This document shows, one piece after another, positions 1 through 36,982 of a stretch of 64,000 bases of DNA. The notes below the pieces were generated by a model, which was not told where the DNA came from, made no database searches, and saw nothing but the letters and a program-made list of their open reading frames with translations. The DNA is taken from assembly GCA_947598325.1 (NCBI GenBank), contig CANQFD010000002.1, positions 26,765-90,764 of the forward strand. Direction: 5' to 3'. Made by a program: the position numbers and the translations under genes. Every line of letters starts with the position of its first letter. Positions within the stretch are counted from its first letter, which is position 1. Source of the stretch: an uncultured Bacilli bacterium. GTDB taxonomy: Bacteria > Bacillota_I > Bacilli_A > RF39 > UBA660.

Positions 1-3000
1 TTATTTTGCGCTGTTACTGTTATTTTTACATCATTATTTCCTTCTAGTAAGTATGTTGTTCCTTTTATATCTACTTTCGCATTCTCTTCATCTTCTGCGA
101 TTGCTTCTATTTCTATGTTCTCATATTCATATGGTATTTGTACACTATATTCTGTTTTTTCTCTTTCAAATCCTTCTATTTCTTTCTCTGGACTTATTAG
201 TTTTAAACTCTTTAAATAATTATTTGTATTTTCTAATCTTGTTATTTTATATATATACTCTATCTTCTCTCCTAAACTATTTGTTACCTCTATTTTATAA
301 TTATTTATTCCTACTTCTAGTGTATATTTCTCTACTTCTATTCCTTCTTTATATACTTTTACTTTTTGTCCTTCATGTTTCTTTTCTATATTAAATCCTA
401 TTTCTTTTACTTCATATGGTACTGTTATCTCATATTCATATATTGTTTCTTCATATTCTGGTATTTCGCAGCTCTCACATACTTCTTCTATTCCTGTTAT
501 TTGTACATCCTTTAATGTCTTCTCTCTTGTCTTGTCTTTTTTTACTGTTATTTCATATACTGATGTACTTCCATCTTCTGCTTGTACTGTTAGTCTTATT
601 TCTGTTTCTGTTTCTTTTAATTCATATACTAAATTCTCATTTATTAATTTACTTCTTTCATCATTTAATTCTACTGTTAGTTCTACTTCTTCGTCTGTAT
701 CAAATACTGATAATGTATATTTATATATATCTTTATCAAATGTTGGACTTAATTCTCCTATGCTTGTCTCTAATACCTTTATTCTTGAATCATTTGATAA
801 CTCATGTTTTACATAGATTATATATGTCTTCTCTTCACTCTTATCTGCACTTGTTACTTTTATTATATATCTATTTTCTCCCTCTGTTATCTCTAACTCT
901 TCTTGTTTCTCTACTGTCGCATGCGCATCCTCTGTTATTACTGTGAAGTTATATTTTGTTACTTTTGTTACATCTTCTGGTACCGTTAACTCATATGATC
1001 CTTCATCTAACTGTTTTAGTGTCCCTACATTTGATGTTATACTTCTTATTCTTGTATTATTACTTTCTTTTCTTGTTACTACTACTGTGTATGTTCTTGT
1101 TATTCCGCCTTTACTTCTTACTACTATCTTATATGTATTTTCTCCTACTTGTAATTCTTTTTCTCCTGTTCCTATTACTTCACTTGTTATTATCTCTGCC
1201 GCTGCTTGTATTGTTATTCTCTCTACTTCATTTCCTACTTCTACTTCGTACCTTAATTCTTCTTTCTTAAATTCTGGACTTAATTTCCCTTCACTTACTG
1301 TTAGGCTTCTTAAATATGTATTACTATAACTTTGTCTATTTACTAGTAGTTTATATGTTGTTTTATCTATTCCATTACTACTTGTTGATATTATTTTTAC
1401 TTCATTTAGTCCTACCTCAAAGTCCTTATTTCCTTCTACTACATATGTACTTCCTGGATCTAATTTACTTATTATTAATTCTAATTCTGTTACTTCATTA
1501 TCTACTACTACTGTATATTCTAATGTATTACTTTCAAATGCTTTATCTAGATAATAATTCTTTACTTCTATATTCTTTAATAATGATGTTACTGGATCCT
1601 TTCTTGTTACTACTATTTTATATGTCTTTACTTCTCCATGTTCTGCGGTTACTACTACTTCTATATTATTTTTTCCTTGTTTTAATTCTCTTATTCCGTC
1701 TCCATCTATTCTTGCATTTTCTTCTTCTGTTTCTGCGATTATCTCTATACTTTCTTCTTCATATTCTACTTCTAATGTGTATTCTGTTCTTTCACTCGTA
1801 AATTCTGGTGTTATTTCATGATCCTTTACGCTTAAGTTCCTTAAATTATTATTCCTTGAACCTAATCTCGTTACTATTATCTTATATTCTCTTGTTTCTC
1901 CTTTTTCACTCGTTACTCCTACTATTAACTCGTTTTCTCCTTTTACTAGGCTCCTCATTCCTCTTCCTGTTACTTGTGCGTACATACTCTCTGCTTCTGC
2001 TTTTATTATTACACTATTTACTTCGTTTTCTACTGTTAGTCTATATTCTTGTATCCCTTTTTTAAATTCTGGTGTTATTTTTTCTCCTTCTATCTCTAAA
2101 CTCTTTAAATAGTTATTTTCTGATTCTTCTTTCGTTACTTTTATTGTATACGTTCTTGTATGGTTTTTATCCGCACTTGTTACTATGATTTTTATCTCAT
2201 TTTGACCTAATTTTAATCCTTCATTTCCTTGAATCTCTATACTTTCTTCTTCATGCATTTTCTCTATTATTATCTCTAGATTCTCTTCTTTTGTTGTTAT
2301 ACTATATTCTTCTTTATCTGGGTTAAATGCTTCATTTAATGTATGATTCTTTACTTCTATTTTCTTTAGCCTTGTCTCTGTACTTTCTTTTCTTGTTACT
2401 ACTACTTGATAATCTTTTTCTTGTCCTTTTGTATTTTTTACTCTTATTTCTATTACATTTTTCCCTTGTTTTAAATTATATTCTCCTATTCCTGTTACTT
2501 CATTTGTTTCATCTTCTGCGCTTGCATTTACCTGTACTTTCTCTACCTCATATTCTACTTCACATTCGTAGTATTGTTTTCCTTTCTCATACACTATATT
2601 ACAGCTTGTTACATCTAACGTTTTTAAATCTAAACTATTTTCTGATTCTTCTTCTTTTGTTACTTTTATTTTATATGTCTTTTCTTCTCCATTTTCTGCC
2701 GTTACTATTATATTTATTTCTGCTTCGTTATTTTCTCCTATTTCTGTTCCTGTTATATTTACCTCTGATGTTTTCTTCTCTGGTTCTGCGATTACATTTA
2801 ATTCTCTTACTTCATTTGGTACTTTTGCTGTGTATTCTAATCTCATTGGATCAAATTTTGGCTCTATTATTCCTTCTTTTAATAGTAAGAATGACAAATT
2901 CGCATTATCTCCTTCGTCTCTTATTACTCTTATTACATACTCTTCCTCTGTTACTCCATCTTCTGCTTTTGTCCTTAATATTATCCTATTTTCTCCATAG

Positions 3001-4860
3001 TTTAGTTTATATTTCCCATTTCCTATTACTTGTGTTGTCTTACTTCTTGCGTATCCTGTTATTTGTATCTCTTCTTCTGTTTCTCCTAGGTTTACTGTAT
3101 ATTCTTTTTCTTCACTACTAAATTCTGGTGTTAATTCTCCTTTATTTACTACTATATTACTTAACAGTGCGTCACTATTATATTCTCTATACACTTTTAT
3201 TTTATATGTCCTTTGTTTTCCTGTCTCACTTGTTACTACTACTTGTATCTCATTTTCTCCACTTGCTAGTGTATATTTCCCTAATCCTATTACACTTGAA
3301 AGTTCATCTTCTTTTTCTCCTTCTACTATTATACTCTCTACTTCATTTCCTAATCTTACTTCGTATTCTTCTCCTTCTCGTGTAAATCCTGGACTTAATT
3401 CTCCTTCACTTACTTCTAAGCTCTTTAAGTAATTTATATCTGATCCTTCTTTTGTTACTACTATTATGTATTCTCTTTCTTCTCCATTTTCTGCCGTTAC
3501 TATTAATCTTACTACGTTCTCTCCTATTTTGAAATTTCCATTACCTATTACTCTTACTTTTGAGGTTTCTTTTTCTGGTGTATAGCTTAATGTTAATTTC
3601 TTTACATATGGATTTACTTGTATTGTATAGTTTCCTTCTTCTTTTTCAAATGGTTCATTAAATTCGCCTTCTTCTGCGCTTAATTCACTTAGATAATTAT
3701 TTGATGATTTCTCTCTTGTTATCATTATTGTATATGTCTCTGTACTTCCATCTTCTGCGGTTGTTAATACTTTTACTTCATTTATTCCTGTTCTTAATTC
3801 TTTTTCTTTATTTATTATTTCTTGTAATTTTGTTGTTCCTTCCATTGTTACATTTGTTGTTCCGGCTTGAGCTACCACATCTATTTGTACTCTTTCTATT
3901 TCATTTGGTACTGTCAATGTATATTTTGTTTGTATATCTTCAAACTCTGGACTTAATGTGTATATTTCTTCATTATTCCTTACCTCTAATTTATCTAATA
4001 ATGCATTACCATTTGACATCCTATATACTGTTAATATATAACTTCTTACTTCTCCATTTTCTGCTGTTACTTCTATCTCTACTATATTATTTCCTACTTG
4101 TAAATCCTTATCTCCTTTTATTTCATATCTTGCTTTTTCATCATCTAATTCTACTTTTAATTTTATCTCTGTTACACTATTTTCTACTTTAAATGCGTAC
4201 TCTGTGATTAAATAGTTGAATCCTATGTCTATACTTGGCTCTACTACCTCTAGGTTATCTATATAGTTATTTCCTGTCATATCTCTTGTGATCTCATATC
4301 TATATACTGTTCTATGCTGTCCATCTTCACTTGTTACCTCTATTGTTATTACATTGTCTCCTCCATTTAATCTTGTTACTCCATCTCCTATTACTTCTTC
4401 ATATTCATGTTTCTTATCTACTGTAAACTCTAAATCTCTTATTCCACTTGGTACTGTCATATAATATGTTGTTGTATCTTCATCAAATTCTTTTGGATCT
4501 ATTTCACAGTATCCTTCATATCCTTCACATACACTTGGCATTAATCCTGTGATTGTTATATCTCTTGCTTTACTTTCACTACTCTTCTCTCTTTTTGTCT
4601 TTATTTTATATATCCTTATTTCTCCACTTTCACTTGTTACTGTTATTTCAAATGTTGTTTCTCCTCCTGGTACTTTTTGCTTCCCTAAGCCTTCTATTTT
4701 TGCTGTATCATCTGATGGTCTTGCGCTTATCTCTATCTCTGTTTCATCTACTTCTAATTCTAATTCATATTCTTCTGTTAGTGGATTAAATTCTGGACTT
4801 AACTTTCCTTTATCTGTCCCTAAATATATTAAGTAGTTATCTCTTGATAATAGCTTCTCT
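1..4860 (-). repeat. Array of ~18 diverged ~85-95-aa cadherin-like beta-sandwich repeats within the giant ORF
   Basis: The translated motif recurs roughly every 270 nt. Examples: NNYLKSLEIEGEKITPEFKKGIQEYRLTVENEV...ELIVGVTSEKGETREYKIIVTR; TYLRSLTVSEGKLSPEFKKEELRYEVEV; NNYLSELSAEEGEFNEPFEKEEGNYTIQV. Repeat-start markers on the plus strand (ctttaaataattat and similar) occur near 215, 1310, 1850, 2105, 3425, 3690 and 4840. The repeat count is by eye. Confidence 0.7.
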
Positions 4861-7800
4861 GGTGTGATTCTTGCGTATCCATCTCCTTCATTTCCTGTCA
4901 TTACATCTGTTCCATCATGTGTTGGCATATTTACTACTTCAGTTCCTTTTTTAGTTGTCCAAGAGTATCCATCTCCATCTATCATTTGTGTATCTGTAAA
5001 ATACATTTCACTATAATGAATACTATCTCCTGTATATTCTATATTTTCTTCAGTTGATTCTTTTGTTACTGCATTACTTCCTTCATGGCCTGAAATGTAT
5101 GATACTCCTCCATAGTCTGGAGATCCACCATAGTAGCCTCCACCGCCACCTCCTAGAGGTGTCCTATTATCTGAACTACTGCCTCCTAATCCGAATTTAT
5201 ATATATGAGAATCCACTGTAGAACGTCCTCCTGCATAACCTGCTTTTGTGTAACTTCCTCCAGATCCTCCAGCAGCAATCATTATTCTAGATTTTAAGGA
5301 ATCAAAATTATCCCATGCTCCATCTTCTGAAACAAATAATCTTACATCTGTGGCACCTCCGCCACCTCCAGCGGGATCTTGTGCATCATTTGAATCATTA
5401 CCAGCTGTTCCTCCGCCGTTATAGCCCCCTGTTCCTCCTTTGTAATTTTCTACTAGTCCACCTTCTTCACCTTGACCTCCAGTGAATATGTATAACGTTT
5501 GGTTCTGTGCAAGGCTTATAATTCCAGAAGTGTAGCCACCTTTTCCGCCATTTCTTGTTGATGACCAATAGTATCTTCCAAAACCACCTTGAGCTCCCCA
5601 TAGTTCTATTTTATATTTTGCTGCAAAAGGTGCTATAAATGTTTGATATTCATTTTTATATTTAAATGTATATTCTTCTTCCATTTCTATTTTTTTATAA
5701 TTTATTGTATATATTGTTGTTTCTGAATGAGGCTCTGTTACTGTTATTATTACTTGTCCTGAATCTTCTTGAATGTACCTATTTCCTTCAATTGTTACTT
5801 TTGCTTCATCATCAAATGTTCCTGTTGTTATATTTAAATCTATTTCATTTGATAAAATTTCTACGTTATATGTTTCTTCTAATGGATGAAATTCTGGATT
5901 TAAATCAGTTTCGTATCTTTCTATTTCTAGTTTTGATAATTTGCTTGAATGTGTTCCTTCTGGTAGTTCTTTTCTTGTTGCATTTACAGTATATGTTCTT
6001 ATATCTCCTGATTCACTTGTTACTGATATTGTTACTTGTTTTGTTTCACCAAACTCAATATCATATTTTTCTAAACCTGTTACGCTTGCTTTTTCATCAG
6101 ATAATTCTCCTGTTAATGTAAAGTGCATATCATACATATCTAAACTTAAATTATATTCTTCTATTGTTGGATCAAATGTTGGACTTAGTGTTCCATAACT
6201 TGATGATAAACTTGATAAGTAATTATCTTTAGATAGTATATTCTCTGGTGTAATTTTTGCGTATCCATCTCCTTCATTTCCTACTTGTGATTCTTCTCCA
6301 TTATATGTTGGTTGATTAACTACTTTATCTCCTTTTTTAGTTGTCCAAGAGTATCCATCTCCATCTATCATTTTGGTATCTGTGAAATATAATTCACTAT
6401 AATGAATACTGTTACCAGTATGTGTTATCTTTTCTTCAGTTGATTCTTTATCTATAGAATTACTTCCTTCGTGACCTGATATATATGATGTTCCTCCATA
6501 TCCTGCGGCACTATCTGATTTTCCAGAACTTCCGCCATAATATCCGCCACCTCCGGCGCCTGAACCTCCTGTAAAGACTAAACCATTTTCTCCTATACCA
6601 AATTTATATACATTTGTATCAAAAGTTGACTTTCCACCTGAGTATCCTTCTCTATTATAAGCACCACCGCCACCTCCGGCAGCGACCATAATTCTTGATT
6701 TCAATGAATCAAAATTATCCCAATCTCCTGTTTCATTTATGTCTAAACGGATATCTGTAGCTCCTCCTGATCCTCCACCTGGATCTGGGTGAGAGTCTCC
6801 TGCATAGCTTGAATCATCTCCACCTTTTCCGCCACCATTATATCCACTATTTCCTCCAATATACTTGATTTCATCTCCACCATCATGTCCTTTTCCACCG
6901 ACAAAGACATATAGAATTTTACCTTTATTTAGTCTAATGTTTCCTGATGTATAGCCTCCATATCCGCCTCTTTCTAAGGTACTTAAATCTTTTAGACCTG
7001 CTCCACCTTGAGCCCCCCAAAGTTGTATTTTATATATTCCTGTTGCTGGTACAATAAATTTTTGATAGTTTCCTTTATAACTAAATTCATATTTAGAATC
7101 TAACTCTATTTTTCTATAGTTAATTGTATACACTGTTTGGGCTACATTTGATTCTGTTACTGTTATTGTTATTTGTCCAGAATCATTTTTCATATATTTA
7201 TTACCTTGAATTTTTACTTTTGCTTCACTATCAAATGTCTCTGTTTTTATATTTAAATCTATTTCACTCGATAAAATTTCTACATTATATGTTTCCTCTA
7301 ATGGTTGAAATTCTGGATTTAATTGAGCTTCATAGCCCTCTATTTCTAGTTTTGATAGTTTGCTTGAATGAATTCCTTCTAATAACTCTTCTCTTGTTAC
7401 ATTTACCTTGTATGTTCTTATATCTCCTGATTCACTCATTACTGATATTATTATTTCTTTTGTTTGACCTGGTTCTACCGCATATCTACCTAAACCTGTA
7501 ACACTTGATTTTTCATCTGATAATTCTCCTGATAATGTAAAATGTGTATCATACATACCTAAGTTTAAATTATATTCTTCTATTAATGGATTAAATTCTT
7601 GATTTAACTTTCCATAATTTGATGATAATTTTTTTAAATAATTATCTTTTGAAAGAACTACAAAAGATGTTATTTTTGCATATCCATTTCCTAAATTTCC
7701 AGTCATTACATTTGTTTCATCATGTGTTGGCATTTCTTCATTTCCTGATTTCATAATTGTATCAGTAAAAATCATATTACTATAATGATATGAACATTCT

Positions 7801-9182
7801 ATATTTTCTGTTCCTGTTTCACATTCAGCTTTTGGTGTTGGATCTGTTTGCGATGTTATTGCTACACTTCCTTGATGCCCTGATATATATGATGAACCGC
7901 CTGCTCCACCATTACCTGTAGAACTATTGGCACCGCCAGCTCCTCCATAGTAGCCGCCGCCACCGCCGCCACCATAATTTTCGCCGGTACCTCCTAAGCC
8001 AAATTTACCATTTTTATTATCTAAATTAGAATAAGATTTACCTCCTGCAGTTTGTGTCCCTCCTGTTGGTTGTTGATTTCCTGCACCATTTGCACCAGTA
8101 AGACCTCCTGCATAACCACCTTTATATCCAGAAGTATAACTGTTATATCCGCCACCGCCTGCTGCTACCATAATCCTACTAGATAGTGATGATGAATCAT
8201 TCCAGTCTCCATTCGATATTCTTACATCTGTAGCTCCACCGCCAGATGTACAATAACTACCACAAGAGCCACCACCATTAAAAGTTGCACTAGCTGAAGA
8301 TAATGATTGACCAACATAAAAATATAATTTTTGACCTGCTTCTAAATCTATCTTACCTGAAGTATATGCGCCTTTACCTGCCAAAGATGTATGAGTACTT
8401 CCTGATGCTCCCCATAGTTCTATCTTATATATTCCTAATGTCGGAGCAATAAATTCTTGTTCATTTGCTTCAAAATCAAAAGTAGTTGAAACACCCTCTA
8501 CAAGTTGAAGCTTATCTGAATTCTTACTATTTAACTCTATTTTTTTATAATTAATTGTGTATGTTGTAGGTGCTTCGTTAGATGCTGTTACTATTATTTT
8601 AACAATTCCCGAATTGTCTTTTATATACTTATTTCCCTCAATTGTTACTTTGGCATCTTTATCAAATGTTTCTGTTTTTATATTTAAGTCTATTTCGTTT
8701 GGCAAAATATCTACGTTGTATATTCCTTCTAATGGATGAAATTCTGGTTCTAAGTCAGTTTCATATCCTTCTATTTCTAGTTTTGATAATTTACTAGAAT
8801 GATTTGCAGTAGTAATTTGATCTCTTGTCGCAGTTATGGTATACGTTGTTTCTTCACTAGAATCATTACTTAATGTTATTAATATTACTTGTGATTGTCC
8901 TGCATCTACTTCATATTTTCCAAGTCCACTTATTTTTATATTTTCATTTGCTGTCGCAGTTAATGTAAAACTTACATCATATTCGCCTAATTTTAATTCA
9001 TATGCTTTTTGATTAGAACTAAAAGATGGACTTAGTTCCCCATGACTTGTTTCAAGTGTATTTAATAATAAACTACTTTCATCTGCTTTTGCCGAATTTA
9101 TGTTCACGCAAAATAGTGTTAATGATACCATTAACACTACAAATATAAAACTAAGTTTTGTGCGCACATTTTTTAGTTTCAT
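1..9182 (-). CDS. Giant secreted or cell-surface repeat protein, first >3,060 codons (3' end of gene lies beyond window start). Layout: signal peptide, then 3 x [two cadherin-like beta-sandwich repeats + glycine-rich module], then ~18 more cadherin-like repeats
   Basis: The reverse complement from 9182 reads ATG AAA CTA AAA AAT GTG..., giving MKLKNVRTKLSFIFVVLMVSLTLFCVNINSAKA/DESSLLLNTLETSHGELSPSF. An RBS (GAAGGAAG) lies 6 nt upstream. I hand-checked the frame (plus-strand triplets starting at positions divisible by 3) at 3-59, 1260-1320, 2580-2640, 3660-3720, 4500-4560, 4920-4980 and 6780-6840 and found no TTA/CTA/TCA. The frame is still open at position 3. It is absent from the ORF track only because no stop lies in the window. 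Confidence 0.9.
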   Translation of the reverse strand, partial: MKLKNVRTKLSFIFVVLMVSLTLFCVNINSAKADESSLLLNTLETSHGELSPSFSSNQKAYELKLGEYDVSFTLTATANENIKISGLGKYEVDAGQSQVILITLSNDSSEETTYTITATRDQITTANHSSKLSKLEIEGYETDLEPEFHPLEGIYNVDILPNEIDLNIKTETFDKDAKVTIEGNKYIKDNSGIVKIIVTASNEAPTTYTINYKKIELNSKNSDKLQLVEGVSTTFDFEANEQEFIAPTLGIYKIELWGASGSTHTSLAGKGAYTSGKIDLEAGQKLYFYVGQSLSSASATFNGGGSCGSYCTSGGGATDVRISNGDWNDSSSLSSRIMVAAGGGGYNSYTSGYKGGYAGGLTGANGAGNQQPTGGTQTAGGKSYSNLDNKNGKFGLGGTGENYGGGGGGGYYGGAGGANSSTGNGGAGGSSYISGHQGSVAITSQTDPTPKAECETGTENIECSYHYSNMIFTDTIMKSGNEEMPTHDETNVMTGNLGNGYAKITSFVVLSKDNYLKKLSSNYGKLNQEFNPLIEEYNLNLGMYDTHFTLSGELSDEKSSVTGLGRYAVEPGQTKEIIISVMSESGDIRTYKVNVTREELLEGIHSSKLSKLEIEGYEAQLNPEFQPLEETYNVEILSSEIDLNIKTETFDSEAKVKIQGNKYMKNDSGQITITVTESNVAQTVYTINYRKIELDSKYEFSYKGNYQKFIVPATGIYKIQLWGAQGGAGLKDLSTLERGGYGGYTSGNIRLNKGKILYVFVGGKGHDGGDEIKYIGGNSGYNGGGKGGDDSSYAGDSHPDPGGGSGGATDIRLDINETGDWDNFDSLKSRIMVAAGGGGGAYNREGYSGGKSTFDTNVYKFGIGENGLVFTGGSGAGGGGYYGGSSGKSDSAAGYGGTSYISGHEGSNSIDKESTEEKITHTGNSIHYSELYFTDTKMIDGDGYSWTTKKGDKVVNQPTYNGEESQVGNEGDGYAKITPENILSKDNYLSSLSSSYGTLSPTFDPTIEEYNLSLDMYDMHFTLTGELSDEKASVTGLEKYDIEFGETKQVTISVTSESGDIRTYTVNATRKELPEGTHSSKLSKLEIERYETDLNPEFHPLEETYNVEILSNEIDLNITTGTFDDEAKVTIEGNRYIQEDSGQVIITVTEPHSETTIYTINYKKIEMEEEYTFKYKNEYQTFIAPFAAKYKIELWGAQGGFGRYYWSSTRNGGKGGYTSGIISLAQNQTLYIFTGGQGEEGGLVENYKGGTGGYNGGGTAGNDSNDAQDPAGGGGGATDVRLFVSEDGAWDNFDSLKSRIMIAAGGSGGSYTKAGYAGGRSTVDSHIYKFGLGGSSSDNRTPLGGGGGGYYGGSPDYGGVSYISGHEGSNAVTKESTEENIEYTGDSIHYSEMYFTDTQMIDGDGYSWTTKKGTEVVNMPTHDGTDVMTGNEGDGYARITPEKLLSRDNYLIYLGTDKGKLSPEFNPLTEEYELELEVDETEIEISARPSDDTAKIEGLGKQKVPGGETTFEITVTSESGEIRIYKIKTKREKSSESKARDITITGLMPSVCEGYEGYCEIDPKEFDEDTTTYYMTVPSGIRDLEFTVDKKHEYEEVIGDGVTRLNGGDNVITIEVTSEDGQHRTVYRYEITRDMTGNNYIDNLEVVEPSIDIGFNYLITEYAFKVENSVTEIKLKVELDDEKARYEIKGDKDLQVGNNIVEIEVTAENGEVRSYILTVYRMSNGNALLDKLEVRNNEEIYTLSPEFEDIQTKYTLTVPNEIERVQIDVVAQAGTTNVTMEGTTKLQEIINKEKELRTGINEVKVLTTAEDGSTETYTIMITREKSSNNYLSELSAEEGEFNEPFEKEEGNYTIQVNPYVKKLTLSYTPEKETSKVRVIGNGNFKIGENVVRLIVTAENGEEREYIIVVTKEGSDINYLKSLEVSEGELSPGFTREGEEYEVRLGNEVESIIVEGEKEDELSSVIGLGKYTLASGENEIQVVVTSETGKQRTYKIKVYREYNSDALLSNIVVNKGELTPEFSSEEKEYTVNLGETEEEIQITGYARSKTTQVIGNGKYKLNYGENRIILRTKAEDGVTEEEYVIRVIRDEGDNANLSFLLLKEGIIEPKFDPMRLEYTAKVPNEVRELNVIAEPEKKTSEVNITGTEIGENNEAEINIIVTAENGEEKTYKIKVTKEEESENSLDLKTLDVTSCNIVYEKGKQYYECEVEYEVEKVQVNASAEDETNEVTGIGEYNLKQGKNVIEIRVKNTKGQEKDYQVVVTRKESTETRLKKIEVKNHTLNEAFNPDKEEYSITTKEENLEIIIEKMHEEESIEIQGNEGLKLGQNEIKIIVTSADKNHTRTYTIKVTKEESENNYLKSLEIEGEKITPEFKKGIQEYRLTVENEVNSVIIKAEAESMYAQVTGRGMRSLVKGENELIVGVTSEKGETREYKIIVTRLGSRNNNLRNLSVKDHEITPEFTSERTEYTLEVEYEEESIEIIAETEEENARIDGDGIRELKQGKNNIEVVVTAEHGEVKTYKIVVTRKDPVTSLLKNIEVKNYYLDKAFESNTLEYTVVVDNEVTELELIISKLDPGSTYVVEGNKDFEVGLNEVKIISTSSNGIDKTTYKLLVNRQSYSNTYLRSLTVSEGKLSPEFKKEELRYEVEVGNEVERITIQAAAEIITSEVIGTGEKELQVGENTYKIVVRSKGGITRTYTVVVTRKESNNTRIRSITSNVGTLKQLDEGSYELTVPEDVTKVTKYNFTVITEDAHATVEKQEELEITEGENRYIIKVTSADKSEEKTYIIYVKHELSNDSRIKVLETSIGELSPTFDKDIYKYTLSVFDTDEEVELTVELNDERSKLINENLVYELKETETEIRLTVQAEDGSTSVYEITVKKDKTREKTLKDVQITGIEEVCESCEIPEYEETIYEYEITVPYEVKEIGFNIEKKHEGQKVKVYKEGIEVEKYTLEVGINNYKIEVTNSLGEKIEYIYKITRLENTNNYLKSLKLISPEKEIEGFEREKTEYSVQIPYEYENIEIEAIAEDEENAKVDIKGTTYLLEGNNDVKITVTAQN
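4861..5675 (-). repeat. Glycine-rich module 3 of the giant ORF
   Basis: Translates as EYTFKYKNEYQTFIAPFAAKYKIELWGAQGG...GDGYARITP. Gly/Ser/Tyr-rich runs appear on the plus strand as ccacc/gccacc tracts. It shares near-identical stretches with module 2, for example ttttttagttgtccaagagtatccatctccatctatcatt. Confidence 0.75.
6247..7092 (-). repeat. Glycine-rich module 2 of the giant ORF
   Basis: Translates as YEFSYKGNYQKFIVPATGIYKIQLWGAQGGAG...NGGGKGGDDSSYAGDSHPDPGGGSGGATDIRL...VAAGGGGGAYN...GGGGYYGGSSG...SYISGHEGS...GDGYAKITP. Confidence 0.75.
7661..8490 (-). repeat. Glycine-rich module 1 of the giant ORF
   Basis: Translates as TTFDFEANEQEFIAPTLGIYKIELWGASGS...GGGATDVRISNGDWNDSSSLSSRIMVAAGGGGYN...GENYGGGGGGGYYGGAGGANSSTGNGGAGGSSYISGHQGS...GNGYAKITSF. 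Confidence 0.75.
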
Positions 9183-9380
9183 ACTTATCTTCCTTCGTGT
9201 ATTATTACGATATTAATTATATCATTTTTTGACATATAAAATCAATATTCTTGCTTTATTTTATATGATTTTTGCATAAAAAAAATAAACTACTTGCTAA
9301 TCATTAATAATTTAGTTTCCTGTATTGTTTTTTACTTTATGCAAATTATTAAAAATACTTAATAAAATCTTTACTTATGT

Positions 9381-9417
9381 AAAAAAAAGATAGTATCTAA
9401 AGAAAAATACTATCTTT
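9381..9417 (-). terminator. Rho-independent terminator after the 291-aa gene, separating it from the giant ORF
   Basis: Hairpin AGATAGTAT-N10-ATACTATCT at 9388-9415, followed on the minus strand by a U-run (plus-strand A-run 9381-9387). Confidence 0.7.
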
Positions 9418-10293
9418 TTAATAATTTTTCATATTTATAGTATATGGATTTAATTGTGATCCATCACCATTTTCTATCACAACATTATTTTTAAGTTTGA
9501 TGACATATTTAATACATGCCCCTTCATTTGATGCTGGTATATATATATCTGAATTTACACTATCTATTATTTCATAATCATTTTCAGTTTTTATCCAAAT
9601 ATTTTTATTGCCTTTGATATATGTATCATCATTTATAAAACTATTAATATATAAATCTTTTGTTATTACATCTAACTTAGATGCCATTATTTTTTTCATA
9701 TATACATCATATTTATCATTATATGTTGTTGATAAATTTGATTTAATATTATTCTTTTTAATTGTTTTATCACAATTTTCTTTTATTATATACATATATC
9801 CCATTTTATCAACTTTAATTATTCTATATATTTCTTGATTAAAACTTATATAATTTTTAGCTTCTGTGCCTTTATAGATATATTCATCATTTTCATAATA
9901 AATTCCATCTTTAGAATTTAATTTTTTAACTAATTCTAAAATTGTACTACCACTTATATAATATAATTTTATTTTTCCATTCTCATTAGATACTATTACT
10001 TTTGTATCATCATCATATTTTTTTCCTGTAAGTGGATTTTTTACATCTTTACTTATATATCCACTTTCTATTAATTCACCTACTGTATACTCAGTAATAG
10101 TATTAGATACATTACTTACATCAGCTGAATATTTATTTTCAGCACTTTTTAATATTCTATCTTTAGATTCATTAAAAGAAATATATCTAGACTGTTCTAC
10201 AGAATTTAATATCATTGGACATATTATAAATATTAGAATTAATATTATAACAACCGAAGTTATACATAATATTATTTTATTATTTTTACTCAA
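9418..10293 (-). CDS. Hypothetical N-terminally membrane-anchored extracellular protein
   Basis: ORF with one N-terminal hydrophobic helix (IILCITSVVIILILIFIICPMIL). The post-helix segment looks pseudopilin-like but there is no G-F-T-L-x-E prepilin motif. It overlaps the upstream gene by 4 nt. Confidence 0.6.
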   Translation of the reverse strand: MSKNNKIILCITSVVIILILIFIICPMILNSVEQSRYISFNESKDRILKSAENKYSADVSNVSNTITEYTVGELIESGYISKDVKNPLTGKKYDDDTKVIVSNENGKIKLYYISGSTILELVKKLNSKDGIYYENDEYIYKGTEAKNYISFNQEIYRIIKVDKMGYMYIIKENCDKTIKKNNIKSNLSTTYNDKYDVYMKKIMASKLDVITKDLYINSFINDDTYIKGNKNIWIKTENDYEIIDSVNSDIYIPASNEGACIKYVIKLKNNVVIENGDGSQLNPYTINMKNY

Positions 10294-12101
10294 TTAGACC
10301 CCTCCTGTTTCAATTCATATATTTTTTTTCCACTATAATTATAATAATTATCTGATGCAACTATATAATTTTCATAAACATCTACAGAGTCTTTAACTTT
10401 TATAGATAGTTCTTCCATACTATCCAAATTTACCAATAAAGTCTCATCCTTGTATTTAGCCATTATAATTGGATATTTAGTAGATAAAATATCAAAAGAA
10501 TCATACACTGGTTTTAACATTATTTTACCATCTGAATTGATTATACCATATTTATTATTTACAGAAAATATGAATAATTCCTGTTTATTTATACTTTTAA
10601 TATTTTTAAATAAATCCTCATCTAATAAAATAATTTCATCATATATAGTTTTAATAACTTCTTTACCATCATTACGTAAAACTCCATAATTTCCATCATT
10701 ACAAACAACAGCATATCCATAACTAGAAAAATCTGACGTTTCTTCATAGTCTTTTTCTGTTATTTTTTTACCATTTTTTGAAATAAAATTATATTTATTA
10801 TCTTTTGAATAAACTTTCATATATCCATTTACAAATGTATCATCAACAGGTTTTATATCACTAAATTCTCCAAATTTTTTATTTGGATTCATAATAGTAT
10901 ATTCATCTTTATTTGTATTAAAATTATGTGTCATCTGAAGAACCACACCATCTGAATAATTATATTCATTGTTAGTATTTGAATTAATAACTTCTCTTGT
11001 TTTTAAATCAATATAATCCTTTTCAGTATTATCTTTTATACCAATTGCAATATTCGAATCAACATCCTCAACTCTAATTCTTTTATAGTTTGACGATTCA
11101 AAAACAACTTTATCATCACTTATGATTAAATATTTATTATTTTCATCATCTTTCTTTGATTTAATATAAAAAACATTATTATCTAAAACATTAATATCAT
11201 CCAATGTATATTTATAAACTTCTTTACCAGTTTTAATATTTACAATCGTTGATGATGAATTTATTTTTATTTTAGCATATTTATCTTTTGATTTTGATGA
11301 TGATGGTTCTACTACTATGTTTCTATCATCTACTTCGTCAACGGTATATGTATATATTTCCTTACCATCACTATTCATTATCCCCATTGTTTCATCTCTT
11401 ATAAATAAGAATAGTCCAGATTTTGAATAACTTAAATTATCATATTTAAAACTAGTTATATCTTTTAAATTTTCATCAAGTAAACCCTGTTTTAATCCCT
11501 TATCTGTAAATTTACTTGCTATATACCTCTTACCATATAAATTTATATAAAAATATGTACCAAATTGTGCTTCTAATTTAGCTCTACCATTTAATATACC
11601 AGATAAATTATTATAATTTTTTACTATTGCATATCCTTTATAAAAATCAGTTCCAGATATATATTTTGGTTTAGCCATAACCTCGCCATCACTATTTATA
11701 TAACCTACTTTGTTATTTTCTTCAATTCTTATTAAGTTAATTCCTTCTGCATTTGTATTTGATATAAATAAATATAAGCCAAGGATTGAAACAAAAACAA
11801 ATGCAAATATAGGAAGTGCAGATGATCCGACCTTAATTTTTTGATATAAATTATCAAATTTATTATTTTCTGTTTTTAATTCATCTAAGTTAATAAAATC
11901 TTTAGCACTAAAATTTTCGTCTGGTATATAACTTTTTATAGGCAAAATTTCTTTTTCTTCTTCAACAGGTAAAGCAATTGCTTCAAACGATTTTGTATCA
12001 TCTAAATTACTAACTTCTTCTTTTTTATTTGAATCAAAAGAGGGTTCAAATGGTAAGTCATCATTTTCTTCCTCTGAAAATGGCAACTCTTCTAGATTCA
12101 T
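10290..12101 (-). CDS. Membrane-anchored WG/KWG-type beta-propeller repeat protein
   Basis: Acidic N-terminus and one TM helix (ALPIFAFVFVSILGLYLFI). Repeated motifs follow: GYINSDGEVMAKPKYI, GIMNSDGKEIYTY, YGVLRNDGKEVIKTIYDEI, YGIINSDGKIMLKPVYDSF. These are typical of WG-containing repeats. Confidence 0.65.
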   Translation of the reverse strand: MNLEELPFSEEENDDLPFEPSFDSNKKEEVSNLDDTKSFEAIALPVEEEKEILPIKSYIPDENFSAKDFINLDELKTENNKFDNLYQKIKVGSSALPIFAFVFVSILGLYLFISNTNAEGINLIRIEENNKVGYINSDGEVMAKPKYISGTDFYKGYAIVKNYNNLSGILNGRAKLEAQFGTYFYINLYGKRYIASKFTDKGLKQGLLDENLKDITSFKYDNLSYSKSGLFLFIRDETMGIMNSDGKEIYTYTVDEVDDRNIVVEPSSSKSKDKYAKIKINSSSTIVNIKTGKEVYKYTLDDINVLDNNVFYIKSKKDDENNKYLIISDDKVVFESSNYKRIRVEDVDSNIAIGIKDNTEKDYIDLKTREVINSNTNNEYNYSDGVVLQMTHNFNTNKDEYTIMNPNKKFGEFSDIKPVDDTFVNGYMKVYSKDNKYNFISKNGKKITEKDYEETSDFSSYGYAVVCNDGNYGVLRNDGKEVIKTIYDEIILLDEDLFKNIKSINKQELFIFSVNNKYGIINSDGKIMLKPVYDSFDILSTKYPIIMAKYKDETLLVNLDSMEELSIKVKDSVDVYENYIVASDNYYNYSGKKIYELKQEGSN

Positions 12102-13555: not shown

Positions 13556-14950
13556 ATGGATATAGAAAAAATCAAATTATTTCAGAAATATAACCCTGAT
13601 TTAAAGATTAGAGAACTAAAAAATGATAAAATCAGTATTTATGTGATATATTTTGAAACGTTATGTGATTCATCATCTATTAATGACTTTATATTAAAGC
13701 CAATAAATATGAATATTATAAAAACTATAGATGATATAAAGGATAAGATCCCTAGTGGTAATTTAAAAGATATAACTGATGAAAAAACTCTATATGATAC
13801 TCTTTATAATGGTTTTACTATAGTATGTGTAAAAAATAAATTTATATCATTTGAAACTAAATATCCTCTTGATAGTGGCATTAGTGAAGCATCTAATGAA
13901 AAAGTTATAAAAGGTCCTAAAGATGCATTTACAGAAAATTATCAAAATAATATGGGATTAATTAGAAAAAGAATTAGATCTAAGGATTTAAAGATAAATG
14001 AATATGTAATTGGTACATCAAGTAAAACGAAAGTAGCTTTATTTTATGTAGATGGTATTGTAAATAAAGATTTAGTAAATAAAATAGAAAAAAAGTTAAA
14101 AAATATGACTATGGATTATGTTGCTAATAGCAACTATATAACTGAAAATTTAGAAAAAAAAGATTATATGTTACCAACTAATTTAATGACTGAAAGACCA
14201 GATCTTGCTAGTTTTCATCTTATGGAAGGAAGAATAATAATATTAGTTGAAAATACACCACAAGTAATAATATTACCAGCATTTTTTAATGATTTTATAA
14301 AAACCATAGACGATTACTATCAAAATCCTAAAAATGTATCCGTTACAAGAATAATCAGAGTAATTGCACTTATAATTGCAATTTTTACTCCAGCAATTTA
14401 TGTTGCACTTTCCACATTTAATCAAGAAACTTTACCAACAGGAGTTCTTATAAATTTCTCTATTCAAAGAGGAGGAGTTCCATTTCCTACGATTGTTGAA
14501 GCTATTGTTATGTGGTTAATATTTGAAGTATTAAGAGAAGCTGATACTAGAATACCATATGTAATGGGATCATCAATGTCTATTGTAGGAGCACTTGTTG
14601 TTGGACAAGCTGCTGTTGATGCAGGTATGATAACTCCTATTATGATAATAATAATTGCAGTTTCATCAGTTGCATCCTTATTATTTAATGATAATGATAT
14701 TGTTAATGCAATAAGAATATGGAAATTAATTTTCTTACTTTTTGCTGCATTCACTGGTTTATATGGTGTATTTATTGCAAGTTTACTTTTCATAACTAAA
14801 TTATGTTCTATGGAACCATATGGTTTTGATTATACAATTCCAAATGCACCATTTAATAAAAATGAACAAAAAAATAACATTATCTTAACTAAAAAATATA
14901 AATTGAATAAAAGAAATCCATTCTTAACAAAAAATATAGATAGGAGATAA
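13556..14950 (+). CDS. Spore germination protein, GerA (A-subunit) family
   Basis: Family-typical length and motifs (TENYQNNMGLIRKRIR, ERPDLASFHLMEGRIIILVENTP). Membrane C-terminal half. First gene of an A-C-B operon. Confidence 0.85.
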   Translation: MDIEKIKLFQKYNPDLKIRELKNDKISIYVIYFETLCDSSSINDFILKPINMNIIKTIDDIKDKIPSGNLKDITDEKTLYDTLYNGFTIVCVKNKFISFETKYPLDSGISEASNEKVIKGPKDAFTENYQNNMGLIRKRIRSKDLKINEYVIGTSSKTKVALFYVDGIVNKDLVNKIEKKLKNMTMDYVANSNYITENLEKKDYMLPTNLMTERPDLASFHLMEGRIIILVENTPQVIILPAFFNDFIKTIDDYYQNPKNVSVTRIIRVIALIIAIFTPAIYVALSTFNQETLPTGVLINFSIQRGGVPFPTIVEAIVMWLIFEVLREADTRIPYVMGSSMSIVGALVVGQAAVDAGMITPIMIIIIAVSSVASLLFNDNDIVNAIRIWKLIFLLFAAFTGLYGVFIASLLFITKLCSMEPYGFDYTIPNAPFNKNEQKNNIILTKKYKLNKRNPFLTKNIDRR

Positions 14951-14953
14951 CAA

Positions 14954-16090
14954 ATGAAAAAAATATTTATTATTTTATTAATATTTTTAGTAAGTGGTTG
15001 TTATAACTACAAAGAATTAAATCAAATATCAATAGTTAGTTCTATAGCAATTGATAAAGCTGATGATGAATATAAAGTAAGTGCACAAATTATGAATGCT
15101 AAAGAAGATGAAGAAAGTGAAAATAGTCAAGTAATAGTATATACCGAAAATGGAAAAACAATTAATGAAGCACTTAGAAAAATGATTTTAAAAGCCCCTA
15201 ATAATTTATATGGTGGACATTTAAGTAAACTTGTCTTATCTGAAGAAGTTGCTAAAGAAGGTATTATAAATGTCTTGGATTTATTCCAAAGATTAACTGA
15301 AGTAAGAAACGAATTTACTATCACAGTTGCTAAAGGTATTGATGCATCTGATGTTATTAAAGTTATGACCTCCCCTGAATCAATTCCAGCAGAGTATGTT
15401 ACAAATTCTCTAAAATCTGCAGATGTTTCAAGTGCTCTTACTTATTCTACTAAACTTGATGAATTTGTATCTCTTTATTTAAAAGATTATATAGATCCTG
15501 TCATTGCAATAATAGAAGTAAAGGACTATGAAAAAAAAGGTACAACAATGGATAACACATCCACAACTGATCCAATATCAAAATTAGTCCTTGGAAATAT
15601 TGCTATTACAAAAGATGGTAAACTTGAAAAATATTTAACTGAAAATGAAACAATAGGATACAATTTTGTTAAGAACCAAGTTCAAGAAATGATTATACCA
15701 GTTAAATGTGATAATAATAGCTATTCTTCTATATCTATACTTGAAAATAAGACTAAAACTAATGTAGATAGAGTTAATAATAAATATAAAGTTAATATTA
15801 ATATTACATCAAGTGCTGTAATTTCAGAATATAATTGTGTGAATAATATTACAAATGAAAAAAACATAAAAAAACTAGAAAAAGAAACTGAAAAAAAGAT
15901 AAAATATTACGTTAATAAATCAATTAATGCACAAAAGGAATCTAAAGGAAGATTTCTAGGACTTGAAAGAACTATATATTTGGACTATCCAGAATATAAA
16001 AATGAAGATTTTGATATAAAAGTTAATGTAAGTGTAAATTTATCAAGAAAAGGCGAAACAAGAAATTCCAGTAAAGGAGCTAAAAGATAA
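14954..16090 (+). CDS. Spore germination lipoprotein, Ger(x)C family
   Basis: Lipobox LVSGC at the N-terminus. Starts 4 nt after the A subunit. The middle region is Ger(x)C-like. Confidence 0.8.
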   Translation: MKKIFIILLIFLVSGCYNYKELNQISIVSSIAIDKADDEYKVSAQIMNAKEDEESENSQVIVYTENGKTINEALRKMILKAPNNLYGGHLSKLVLSEEVAKEGIINVLDLFQRLTEVRNEFTITVAKGIDASDVIKVMTSPESIPAEYVTNSLKSADVSSALTYSTKLDEFVSLYLKDYIDPVIAIIEVKDYEKKGTTMDNTSTTDPISKLVLGNIAITKDGKLEKYLTENETIGYNFVKNQVQEMIIPVKCDNNSYSSISILENKTKTNVDRVNNKYKVNINITSSAVISEYNCVNNITNEKNIKKLEKETEKKIKYYVNKSINAQKESKGRFLGLERTIYLDYPEYKNEDFDIKVNVSVNLSRKGETRNSSKGAKR

Positions 16091-17169
16091 TGAATACAAA
16101 AATTAGTAATAAAGGATTTGCAAGTCTATTATATTTCTTATCACAATCAATGTTTTTAGGAGTTGGTATTACACAAATTTTAAATTCCTCTGAACAAAGC
16201 AGTCCATTATCTATAATATTAGGTTTTTTAATAGGTTTTTTAATTTTATATTTTTTTATAAAGTTATTTAATTATGAAAAAGATTTAGATCTATTTAAAA
16301 AAATAGAAAAATTATTTGGAAAAACATTTGGAAATATATTAAATATAATTTTAGTCTTACTATTTATATTATATTTTATTTATACACTATGGAGTATTCA
16401 ATTATATATTCAAAATAAATATTTAGATAAAACTCCTAGTATAATAATACTACTTTTATTTCTAATGCCTGTAATATATTCTGTAAATAGCGGTGTTAAA
16501 ACTATATGTAAAGTATCACTAATAATATTTTTTATAGCAATAATAGAAATTCTTCTTTCTATTTTTGGACTTACTAGTTTTATAGAAATTGATAATTTAA
16601 AACCATTCTTTACTATTCCATTTTCTACTATACTAAAAAATTCATTATATTTTATATCCTATTTTTTAACACCTATAATATTAATGTTAACTATTCCAAA
16701 AAACCAAATTGAAAATCAAAATAAATTAAATAAAAGAATAATTGGATTTTATATATTTGGTTGTATAAACTTCCTATTATTATTTACATTTATAATAAGC
16801 ATATTTGGTATAGAACTAGCTAAATTATTCTATTATCCTGAATTTACACTTATAAAGAGAATAAATTATTTTGATTTTATTCAGCATGTTGAAAATATTT
16901 TATCTACACAATGGTTATTTAGTCTATTTATAAGTTCAGTTATGAGTTTGTTTTTCATAAAAAGCTATTTAAATCATAAAAATATTGATAGAAAAAAAAT
17001 ATATTATCCACTTATAATAATTATATTAATTATATCCACAATGTTATTTAAAAATACAACTATCGCATATGATATAGTTAAAAATTACTTTGTTTTTATA
17101 TATACAATACCTATATTTTTACTTATAATTATTAGTTTAATAGTAGTAAAAAGAAATAGAATTTCCTAG
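16090..17169 (+). CDS. Spore germination permease, GerAB (B-subunit, APC-like) family
   Basis: Polytopic membrane protein of ~10 TM helices. Its start overlaps the stop of the C subunit. Confidence 0.8.
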   Translation: MNTKISNKGFASLLYFLSQSMFLGVGITQILNSSEQSSPLSIILGFLIGFLILYFFIKLFNYEKDLDLFKKIEKLFGKTFGNILNIILVLLFILYFIYTLWSIQLYIQNKYLDKTPSIIILLLFLMPVIYSVNSGVKTICKVSLIIFFIAIIEILLSIFGLTSFIEIDNLKPFFTIPFSTILKNSLYFISYFLTPIILMLTIPKNQIENQNKLNKRIIGFYIFGCINFLLLFTFIISIFGIELAKLFYYPEFTLIKRINYFDFIQHVENILSTQWLFSLFISSVMSLFFIKSYLNHKNIDRKKIYYPLIIIILIISTMLFKNTTIAYDIVKNYFVFIYTIPIFLLIIISLIVVKRNRIS

Positions 17170-33159: not shown

Positions 33160-33233
33160 GGGTCTATAGCCAAGTGGTAAGGCACGGGACTGCAACTCCC
33201 TGATCGTTGGTTCAAATCCGACTAGGCCCTCCA
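33160..33233 (+). tRNA. tRNA-Cys (anticodon GCA)
   Basis: GGGTCTATAGCCAAGTGGTAAGGCACGGGACTGCAACTCCCTGATCGTTGGTTCAAATCCGACTAGGCCCTCCA. The acceptor, D and T arms pair. Anticodon loop is CTGCAAC and CCA is encoded. Confidence 0.85.
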
Positions 33234-33234
33234 T

Positions 33235-33309
33235 GCAGGTGTAGTACAATGGTTAGTACGCAGCCTTGCCAAGGCCGAGATGGGAGTTCGATTCTCCTCA
33301 CTTGCTCCA
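33235..33309 (+). tRNA. tRNA-Gly (anticodon GCC)
   Basis: GCAGGTGTAGTACAATGGTTAGTACGCAGCCTTGCCAAGGCCGAGATGGGAGTTCGATTCTCCTCACTTGCTCCA. Anticodon loop is TTGCCAA. There is one A-C mismatch in the anticodon stem. CCA is encoded. Confidence 0.85.
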
Positions 33310-33355
33310 ATATGATAGGAAACTCGAACTTTTAAGATTTCGAGAGTAATAAATG

Positions 33356-33378
33356 CTAACAGAAATGTTAGTTTTTTT
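33356..33378 (+). terminator. Rho-independent terminator of the tRNA operon
   Basis: CTAACA-GAAA-TGTTAG followed by TTTTTTT. It is preceded by a second hairpin CTCGAA-N10-TTCGAG at 33323-33344. Confidence 0.7.
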
Positions 33379-33411
33379 GTTATCTAAATTTAGAAAGTGA
33401 GAGTGATATAT

Positions 33412-33687
33412 ATGTTAACAATAGAAACTAAAGAATTAGAAATAAGTGATGAACTAAAAAGAAAGGTTGAAATGATATGTAAGTTTGCTTGTGCTAAACC
33501 TACTATCACAAATGGAAATATCAAAAGCATTAAAGAAACAAATATTGCTTATGTAATGCCACATATTATTAAAATTAATAATATTGATTATTTAATGTTT
33601 GACGAATGTGATGACATATTTGTTAATGGTTATGATGAAAAAATAAAGTTTAAAGACTTTGAAAACTACATTAAAAGCCATTTTTAA
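33412..33687 (+). CDS. Hypothetical small protein (91 aa from the ATG at 33412). Membership in the element is uncertain
   Basis: ORF MLTIETKELEISDELKRKVEMICKF... with no recognisable motif. The track start (GTG at 33397) is less likely. Confidence 0.45.
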   Translation: MLTIETKELEISDELKRKVEMICKFACAKPTITNGNIKSIKETNIAYVMPHIIKINNIDYLMFDECDDIFVNGYDEKIKFKDFENYIKSHF

Positions 33688-33696
33688 GCCAATGGT

Positions 33697-33724
33697 TTGA
33701 CATTTCTTAAAAAAGTGATAGAAT
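33697..33724 (+). promoter_or_regulatory. Near-consensus extended -10 promoter upstream of the recombinase leader
   Basis: TTGACA (33697-33702), a 16-nt spacer, then TGaTAGAAT (-10 at 33719-33724). Confidence 0.65.
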
Positions 33725-33770
33725 ATTCAAACAGGAAAACTTATGTCTATTTAAGGGGGGTTAAATAGTT

Positions 33771-33830
33771 ATGAGATTCAAGTTTAAAAGTAATTTATAT
33801 TCAAGATTAAATTTTAAGAGGTGTCAATAG
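33771..33830 (+). CDS. Candidate 19-codon leader peptide (MRFKFKSNLYSRLNFKRCQ)
   Basis: The ATG at 33771 lies 10 nt after AAGGGGGG. The stop TAG (33828-33830) lies inside the 5' arm of the downstream hairpin. Confidence 0.3.
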   Translation: MRFKFKSNLYSRLNFKRCQ

Positions 33831-33861: not shown

Positions 33862-33879
33862 AGTAAAAGGAGTTGATAA

Positions 33880-36982
<3,103 letters not shown>

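Follow-up and report, generated by a model that had tools for sequence, protein, structure and literature searches.

The left end of a 64,000-nucleotide (nt) stretch of contig CANQFD010000002.1, from an uncultured Bacilli bacterium, carries most of a gene for a giant surface protein with three glycine-rich domains (GRDs) of the type found in the receptors ALK and LTK; the whole stretch is referred to below as the window. The window takes in two-thirds of a chromosomal gene, counted from its 5' end, whose product is a secreted protein of 4,455 amino acids (aa) of an uncultured gut bacterium. It is close to certain that this protein consists, in order, of a Sec signal peptide, three units each made up of two cadherin-like domains and one GRD (Cad-Cad-GRD), and an unbroken rod of further cadherin-like domains, and the homology of the three modules to the ALK/LTK glycine-rich domain is secure. 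As to function, the reading that we favour, with reservations that are set out below, is that the protein would be a multivalent adhesin fibre with the GRDs as its binding heads.

Three ALK/LTK-type glycine-rich domains on a cadherin-like rod

We found two Pfam families in the 3,060 residues encoded within the window, PF12810 (ALK_LTK_GRD; 383.8 bits, E = 6.1e-115, three stretches) and PF12733 (482.3 bits, E = 5.6e-148, 17 stretches). No other Pfam family was significant in these residues, a match to DUF4878 remaining below threshold; the families listed for the full 4,455-aa product are PF12810, PF12733 and a weak Big_2. Scanned singly, GRD-1, GRD-2 and GRD-3 matched PF12810 with E-values of 5.4e-47, 2e-39 and 9.7e-37 and bit scores of 161.3, 136.5 and 127.7 (cutoff 24.5), and each module covers the profile from position 7 or 8 to position 241 or 242 of 243 (8 to 242 for GRD-1). 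A preliminary description of this DNA had placed the modules in the ALK/LTK-type glycine-rich family from their motifs, and the Pfam search bears this out for all three, far above threshold and over nearly their full length. The motifs that it quoted (Q.F..P....YKI.LWGA.G, GGATD.R, SL.SRIM.AAGG.G, SYISGH.GS and G.GYA[KR]IT) are all present in our three-way alignment.

A phmmer search of PDB sequences with a single module as query found nothing; a profile of 95 bacterial GRDs recovered Caenorhabditis elegans SCD-2 (7lir, E = 6.5e-12), human ALK (E of about 2e-10) and LTK (7nx0, E = 3.4e-5) from the same sequences. AlphaFold2 modelled GRD-1 with a predicted local distance difference test score (pLDDT) of 96.9 and a predicted template modelling score (pTM) of 0.94, and GRD-3, the most divergent paralogue, with 94.1 and 0.93. 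On comparison with the PDB by Foldseek, for both models the 21 hits at E <= 1e-5 were all GRDs of ALK, LTK or SCD-2, at a probability of 1.00. The next hits for GRD-1 had E-values of 0.5 or worse, and those for GRD-3 were a mycobacteriophage tail-tip chain (E = 4.5e-3) and the fibre of cyanophage Pam3 (E = 0.19).

The likeness to ALK, LTK and SCD-2 (PDB 7LRZ, 7LS0, 7N00, 7NWZ, 7NX0 and 7LIR) lies in PF12810, matched nearly end to end, which in those proteins is an extracellular ligand-binding module; ALK and LTK use it to bind activating cytokines. The differences are considerable. The kinase, transmembrane, MAM, LDLa and EGF-like parts of the receptors were not found in the 3,060 residues, the window protein has three GRDs per chain against one in ALK/LTK, identity is 15-21%, and the motifs ATD.R, SYISGH and HYS, invariant in the bacterial domains, are not all kept in ALK. 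The window protein shares the ALK/LTK domain, but is not a member of the ALK/LTK receptor tyrosine kinase family.

The gene lies on the minus strand, where the reading frame is open from position 9212 to the left end of the window. Its start codon is the ATG at 9182, and 3,060 codons fall inside the window, with the rest beyond the left end; the length of 4,455 aa is that of the product on the source contig (ENA ERZ27249228 NODE_13), of which the window holds the first 3,060 codons. The gene was missing from a mechanical list of open reading frames (ORFs) because its frame runs off the left end of the window. Domains were mapped with a profile of the protein's own repeats, giving the following features:

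1..9182, minus strand: coding sequence of the giant surface protein (open frame; first 3,060 of 4,455 codons)
9216..9245, minus strand: promoter-like site, TTGATT, 18-nt spacer and TG-extended TATAAT (10 of 12 consensus matches)
9189..9196, minus strand: Shine-Dalgarno sequence GAAGGAAG, 6 nt upstream of ATG 9182 (read from sequence)
9084..9182, minus strand: predicted Sec-type signal peptide MKLKNVRTKLSFIFVVLMVSLTLFCVNINSAKA, then DE (basic n-region, hydrophobic core and A-K-A site, read from the translation)
8502..9044, minus strand: unit 1, two cadherin-like beta-sandwich domains, aa 47-133 and 141-227 (PF12733 and own-repeat profile)
7665..8486, minus strand: GRD-1, aa 233-506, ALK/LTK-type, of a subtype shared with pilin-like proteins (PF12810, AlphaFold2, Foldseek)
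7074..7616, minus strand: unit 2, two cadherin-like domains, aa 523-610 and 618-703 (own-repeat profile)
6249..7094, minus strand: GRD-2, aa 697-978, second subtype (PF12810, alignments)
5652..6197, minus strand: unit 3, two cadherin-like domains, aa 996-1083 and 1091-1177 (own-repeat profile)
4863..5675, minus strand: GRD-3, aa 1170-1440, second subtype (PF12810, AlphaFold2, Foldseek)
4944..4987, no strand: 44-nt exact repeat, copy in GRD-3 (repeat search)
6330..6373, no strand: 44-nt exact repeat, copy in GRD-2 (repeat search)
1..4811, minus strand: rod, 18 cadherin-like domains in succession from aa 1458 to past aa 3060, with further length outside the window (own-repeat profile)

The promoter-like site is a consensus match alone, and such sites are no more numerous in the region than expected from shuffled sequence. 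In each unit, a module of about 275 aa comes after a pair of cadherin-like domains; GRD-2 lacks the GLTGANGAGNQQPTGGTQTAGG loop and has an additional IDGDGYSWTTKKG loop. The three complete units together occupy about 4845-9074, and direct DNA repeats within them are spaced 1386, 1419 and 1431 nt apart, in agreement with the three tandem units of about 1.4 kb that had been noticed initially. The interval first given for them, 4861-8490, does cover all of the three modules, GRD-1 to GRD-3, but omits the cadherin-like domains of unit 1 (8502-9044). Tandem Repeats Finder, with a longest period of 500, shows no tandem array here, as it is blind to units whose period exceeds 500 nt.

With the six cadherin-like domains of the units and the 18 of the rod, the window contains 24 such domains, or 26 when L007, which extends the window protein by 195 residues, is included. 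A complete orthologue of about 6,100 aa (L001) was found in the rabbit-gut metagenome-assembled genome (MAG) CANRCC01. Its N-terminus is almost identical to the signal peptide of the window protein, and its residues 1673-4908 are collinear with residues 40-3255 of the window protein at 72.8% identity over 3,276 columns. Given this collinearity, and given that the two proteins differ in total length by 1,647, nearly the same as the alignment offset of 1,633, the C-terminal 1,200 residues of the window protein, which lie outside the window, should match the end of L001. There, further cadherin-like domains are followed by Big_2 (E = 1e-7) and by a Dockerin_1 domain that is complete (E = 1.2e-6; 29.0 bits, cutoff 22.9), and a C-terminal dockerin is Pfam-significant in five of the seven other family members tested. 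Judging from L001, this C-terminal part probably prolongs the rod and closes with Big_2 and a type I dockerin.

Proposed role as an adhesin fibre, and alternatives to it

In the arrangement that we propose, the three GRDs would be ligand-binding heads, each a TNF-like beta-sandwich with a projecting glycine lattice, in which the glycine motifs would form a rigid, conserved scaffold and the segments between them variable loops that make up the binding surface. The module is seen in this light in ALK/LTK, where it binds cytokines, and in the Pam3 tail fibre, where it serves recognition of the host receptor. The C-terminus would be at the cell surface, where the dockerin would tie it to a cohesin-bearing partner, and the rod would act as an extender, holding the N-terminal GRD region, with its three different heads, at the far end of the fibre, separated from the cell by some 30 domains. 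Several binding specificities are probably combined in one fibre, because the heads are old, strongly diverged paralogues of two subtypes with insertions and deletions in their loops.

We base the adhesin reading on four lines of evidence: the occurrence of the domain on pilin-like proteins, its occurrence in phages, the precedent of Pam3, and the pattern of a conserved scaffold with variable loops. GRD-1 has its nearest relatives, at 57-64% identity, in pilus subunits with a GRD, which are about 410-440 residues long and have the prepilin methylation motif at the N-terminus, and GRD-1 groups in a tree with prepilin-type PF07963 proteins that carry one or two C-terminal GRDs (P0002, P0007, P0021 and L004). 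Such proteins are about 410-900 aa long and bear the type IV pilin methylation motif, whereas the window protein has a Sec signal peptide and a rod; Pfam did not find PF07963 in it, and no G-F-T-L-x-E is present at its N-terminus. Against predicted structures of viral proteins (BFVD), the GRD-1 model matched phage and giant-virus proteins with a template modelling (TM) score of up to 0.77 and E = 2e-20, some of them labelled as short tail fibre, tail collar or virion structural protein, and three PHROG families match the GRD at E-values of 1e-34 to 1e-40.

In the tail fibre gp24 of Pam3 (PDB 7YPX), a TNF-like and glycine-rich module with a conserved glycine stem and a hypervariable tip has been assigned to host-receptor recognition, and glycine makes up 39% of its lattice region (PMC9608196). 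The share is the same in GRD-1, where residues 111-211 are 39% glycine and, though modelled with pLDDT >93, contain almost no helix or strand by DSSP, both indirect signs of a possible lattice of polyglycine-II helices. With a predicted TNF-like sandwich and glycine-motif lattice at the putative distal end of a long fibre, the window protein resembles Pam3 gp24 and gp38 of Salmonella phage S16 (PDB 6F45), and with gp24 it shares the combination of a conserved glycine stem and variable loops; S16 gp38 is not among the Foldseek matches listed for GRD-3. These phage fibres are trimeric virion parts with dedicated chaperones, whereas the window protein is a single chromosomally encoded chain with three heads in series, and it would work like the phage polyglycine receptor-binding adhesins without being one of them.

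Conservation within the GRD family is higher at glycine positions (0.78) than at other residues (0.53), and it is between the glycine motifs that the sequence varies and takes up insertions and deletions. The three paralogous GRDs differ chiefly through loop insertions. Between orthologues, the ratio of nonsynonymous to synonymous substitution rates (dN/dS) is 0.05 for the scaffold and rises to 0.86 for the variable positions. As the latter value does not exceed 1, no positive selection is claimed for the loops.

The general build recalls that of the ice-binding adhesin MpIBP of Marinomonas primoryensis and of the staphylococcal Ebh/Bap-type adhesins, in which tens of Ig-like or beta-sandwich repeats extend binding modules from the cell. 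Those proteins are composed of unrelated domains and depend on type I secretion or LPXTG, against Sec and a putative dockerin here, and, unlike in them, the distal end of the window fibre would be its N-terminus.

Several results count against the adhesin reading or against one of its parts, and it needs to be viewed with corresponding caution. Superposition of the models on solved ALK/LTK structures is loose (TM 0.36-0.44, root-mean-square deviation 8-13 Å), and the usual TM threshold for the same fold is 0.5; therefore either the global geometry differs from that of ALK or the models are imperfect. The structural comparison called for in the preliminary description accordingly has a mixed outcome, with only ALK, LTK and SCD-2 reached at E <= 1e-5 but a poor overall fit to them. 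The Pam3 fibre structures 7ypx and 7yfw match GRD-3 only at non-significant E-values of 0.19-0.3. The dN/dS of 0.86 in the loops, being below 1, fits relaxed constraint as well as it fits diversifying selection. With regard to anchoring, PF00404 is absent from the precomputed Pfam list of the 4,455-aa product, and Pfam or NCBIfam scans of 32 ORFs of the window, which represent 64 kb of genome, revealed no cohesin.

The dockerin, present in the L001 ortholog and in most of the family members tested, also admits a different role, in which the protein would be a polysaccharide-binding part of a cellulosome-like complex: the GRDs would serve as carbohydrate-binding modules for dietary fibre or host glycans, and the dockerin would plug the protein, alongside enzymes, into a scaffoldin. 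This would be a form of the binding model narrowed to one class of ligand and one kind of complex. PF12733 cadherin-like domains are known from carbohydrate-active surface proteins of Firmicutes, and the relatives were sampled from gut and rumen. We nevertheless regard this as unlikely, since neither the protein nor the genes beside it contain a glycoside hydrolase (GH), a cohesin or a known carbohydrate-binding module; genes for GH3 and GH25 proteins at 39.8-43.5 kb are >30 kb distant and look like cell-wall turnover enzymes. The GRD is, moreover, also found on pilins and phage fibres, whose usual targets are protein or cell-surface receptors.

A little less probable again is a purely structural surface fibre, in which the GRDs would serve as stiff knobs or spacers, for instance to keep cells apart or to build a sheath or capsule-like layer, and would have no specific ligand. 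The very strong purifying selection on the glycine scaffold (dN/dS 0.05), the loop value of less than 1 and the predominance in the protein of >24 structural beta-sandwich repeats are all what such a fibre would lead one to expect. However, the characterised uses of the module that we found, in ALK/LTK and the Pam3 fibre, are in recognition, and the paralogues have stayed distinct subtypes across species instead of being homogenised, which is unexpected for interchangeable spacers.

We consider it most improbable that the GRD has an enzymatic function or binds a metal or cofactor, with an active site drawn from the invariant GGATD.R, SRIM, SYISGH and HYS. Residues D89, R91, R106, S204 and H236 are indeed invariant in the 95 bacterial sequences, and D89 and R91 are not kept in the aligned ALK and SCD-2 sequences; but these invariant polar residues could equally be structural. 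No similarity to an enzyme family was seen for the GRDs in Pfam or the PDB (NCBIfam was applied to the neighbouring genes only), and no function is assigned to the PHROG families in which the domain occurs.

Some of the phage and giant-virus matches in BFVD, for example A0A8S5SE10, A0A8S5QTR7 and A0A2P0VMX4, are named 'receptor protein-tyrosine kinase', a label that we take as a carry-over from annotation of the ALK GRD and not as a sign of a kinase.

Age of the units and breadth of the family

Protein identity among the three units is 51%, 55% and 66%, the highest value being that for units 2 and 3 overall, between which nucleotide identity varies from 51% to 91% across 90-nt windows. Synonymous divergence (dS) in the N-terminal and core parts of the GRDs is 1.1-1.8, and thus saturated, for every pair of units. 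The lowest values (0.36-0.48) were obtained for the first and second cadherin-like domains and the GRD C-terminus of units 2 and 3, and nucleotide identity reaches 80-91% at unit edges; old gene conversion of limited extent is the best explanation for these more-similar patches. GRD-1 is 86% identical to GRD-2 of L001 and 46-50% identical to its own paralogues GRD-2 and GRD-3, while GRD-2 is 78% and 73% identical to GRD-5 and GRD-4 of L001 and 62% identical to GRD-3. As the GRDs are nearer to their L001 orthologues than to their own paralogues, and as orthologue dS is low (0.2-0.34), the paralogues predate the species split by a wide margin. The recent intragenic duplication that had been proposed from the similarity of the modules is contradicted by the saturated GRD cores and by the closeness of GRD-1 to a domain in another species.

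There are eight exact repeats of at least 20 nt between the units, of which only one, of 44 nt, is longer than 26 nt. It includes a 40-mer singled out in the preliminary description, which is present exactly twice (4947-4986 and 6333-6372; chance expectation 0). The long near-identical stretches of DNA reported for modules 2 and 3 are represented by this repeat, but were otherwise overstated. That the longest exact repeat between units is just 44 nt argues against both a repeat-collapse artefact and frequent ongoing slippage.

The 44-nt repeat shared by GRD-2 and GRD-3, the similarity of the unit edges and the differences in unit number among orthologues are the features that might suggest a recently triplicated array, expanding and contracting within populations in the manner of a contingency locus. 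We give this very little credence, for dS is at least 0.36 everywhere between units and far higher in the GRD cores, the paralogues are older than the split from L001, exact repeats between units are few and short, and six contigs with an identical neighbouring gene show mostly the same neighbouring proteins. It is hardly credible that the three-copy structure is a short-read assembly artefact of collapsed or chimeric repeats: repeats are a known hazard for short-read metagenome assemblies and the source is a SPAdes-style contig of about 11x coverage, but the units are too diverged to collapse, the frame is intact across 9.2 kb and the whole region is collinear with the independently assembled L001 orthologue.

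The number of GRDs does vary between species: L001 has five, L002 four (its contig is cut) and L003 and L004 two each, against three in the window protein. In a register scan, window residues from about 193 to 600 follow unit 2 of L001 (62-95% identity, against 23-57% in the alternative register), whereas from about residue 610 the register of L001 unit 4 fits better, which places the switch near aa 600-620, in unit 2. Relative to L001, the window gene is without the N-terminal extra domain and unit 1, and also without a block in which four cadherin-like domains are joined by an unannotated glycine-rich insert and by L001's GRD-3. Such differences are consistent with gain and loss of whole units over evolutionary time through recombination between the repeated cadherin-like spacers. 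The scope for copy-number variation suggested at the outset is therefore supported on the evolutionary scale only, by a 73%-identical, collinear orthologue with five units instead of three.

An exhaustive profile search of 1.84 billion representative proteins returned 7,805 at E <= 1e-3, a number that counts clusters at 50% identity, and 1,149 at E <= 1e-30. We re-scanned the best 150 representatives with local profiles to obtain domain counts. At least two matched stretches were found in 149 of these 150, at least three GRDs in 71, GRDs together with cadherin-like domains in 35, and the Cad-Cad-GRD unit as in the window protein in 32; the largest have nine GRDs, 45-50 cadherin-like domains and >7,000 residues. 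Three copies in one bacterial surface protein had been thought unusual, which these counts do not support, and the window protein is a modest member of a widespread, uncharacterised metagenomic family. Members including L001, P0122, P0124-P0127, P0130, P0131 and P0154 have the same repeat unit and the build (Cad-Cad-GRD)n, cadherin-like rod, Big_2 and dockerin, with 2 to 9 GRDs against the three of the window protein. A database of clusters at 90% identity returned neither the window protein nor its giant relatives, only proteins of <=492 aa; the giant relatives were found by genome scan and by the exhaustive search of representatives. The relatives of the GRDs belong to gut MAGs of rabbit, human, buffalo and mouse, and were sampled from gut and rumen. 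No description of bacterial PF12810 or glycine-rich-domain proteins was found in the searchable literature; the architecture is frequent in metagenomes and no description of it was found in that literature, although the domain family itself is already known.

It is conceivable, though we put it forward only tentatively, that GRD fibres are a large class of adhesins of uncultured gut Bacilli, each head having a different ligand, and that the ALK/LTK domain is an offshoot of the module that they carry. If so, each head, with fast-evolving loops on a conserved glycine lattice much like the tip of a phage tail fibre, would bind a different host, dietary or microbial ligand, and the metazoan ALK/LTK domain would derive from an abundant prokaryotic and phage receptor-binding module. 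The searchable literature treats this domain as metazoan with a few phage look-alikes, whereas here it is abundant in bacteria, with the 7,805 clusters noted above, and occupies the exposed end in three display systems: giant fibres of cadherin-like domains, proteins resembling type IV pilins, and the fibres of phages. In gut lineages about which little is known, the bacterial GRD proteins are candidate adhesins, and they also supply a natural collection of loop variants built on a single glycine scaffold. The value of the present locus is that of a clean example, with three old paralogous heads and a clear orthologue with a different number of units, and not that of a new kind of system.

Three observations on relatives may be added. 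A prepilin-type protein (MKKKGFTLIELL...) in a mouse-gut MAG (L004, 9488-12106) has two GRDs in tandem with 82% mutual identity, which shows lineage-specific GRD duplication on a pilin scaffold as well. A giant protein of >4,466 aa in a buffalo-reticulum MAG (L003, 1-13398) has two GRDs and no cadherin-like domains, and ends in a hydrophobic segment followed by KKSKNR that resembles a membrane anchor or sorting signal; GRDs are thus combined with other stalks and anchors too. A second glycine-rich module of about 370 aa is found in L001 (about 9000-10120, ORF residues about 1320-1690) and at the N-termini of P0131 and P0139, with the pattern TYPVELINYYGD ... LTIEEGVTLTANTHT ... GTLTNxGTISMTARGT ... 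SYSGGxGGG ... GGLLVIYS ... GGxSGGGSINxFY. Pfam gave no match for this module at E <= 0.1, and it is absent from the window protein.

Genomic setting

The neighbours of the giant gene are ordinary chromosomal genes (rlmD, a gerXA/XC/XB operon, ogg, htpG and clpB, and further away spo0A, ftsK, ezrA, RNase J and tyrS), and an origin of the giant gene in a prophage or mobile element was rejected given its neighbours rlmD, gerXA/XC/XB, ogg, htpG and clpB. Directly upstream, at 9418-12101 on the minus strand, are genes for a 603-aa WG-repeat protein (PF14903) and a 291-aa protein without a family, which overlap by 4 nt and are followed by an AT-rich hairpin with a T-run. No homologues of the two proteins were found in the related loci by tblastn. 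We considered these genes as a possible part of the system and rejected this, as they are absent from related loci and as the giant gene has its own promoter-like site and ribosome-binding site.

The G+C content is about 25%, and relatives of the ClpB protein are labelled as Bacilli or Tenericutes/Mycoplasmatota MAGs. The GerXA/XC/XB-type germination operon lies at 13556-17169 on the plus strand and the Spo0A gene at 61859-62632 on the minus strand; the presence of both in a lineage of such low G+C content indicates an endospore-forming member of a poorly known group. The ClpB-type AAA+ chaperone (23194-25311, minus strand) is without the N-terminal domain, matching TIGR03346 over positions 145 to 852 of 853 with 1137 bits, below the cutoff of 1232, and close relatives have the same length (703-705 aa). 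At 33160-36982 on the plus strand, two adjacent tRNA genes (33160-33306) are followed by genes for a serine recombinase (33883-35754) and a Mob_Pre relaxase (35735-36982); GC skew changes sign around this segment, which looks like a small mobilisable element integrated at a tRNA site.

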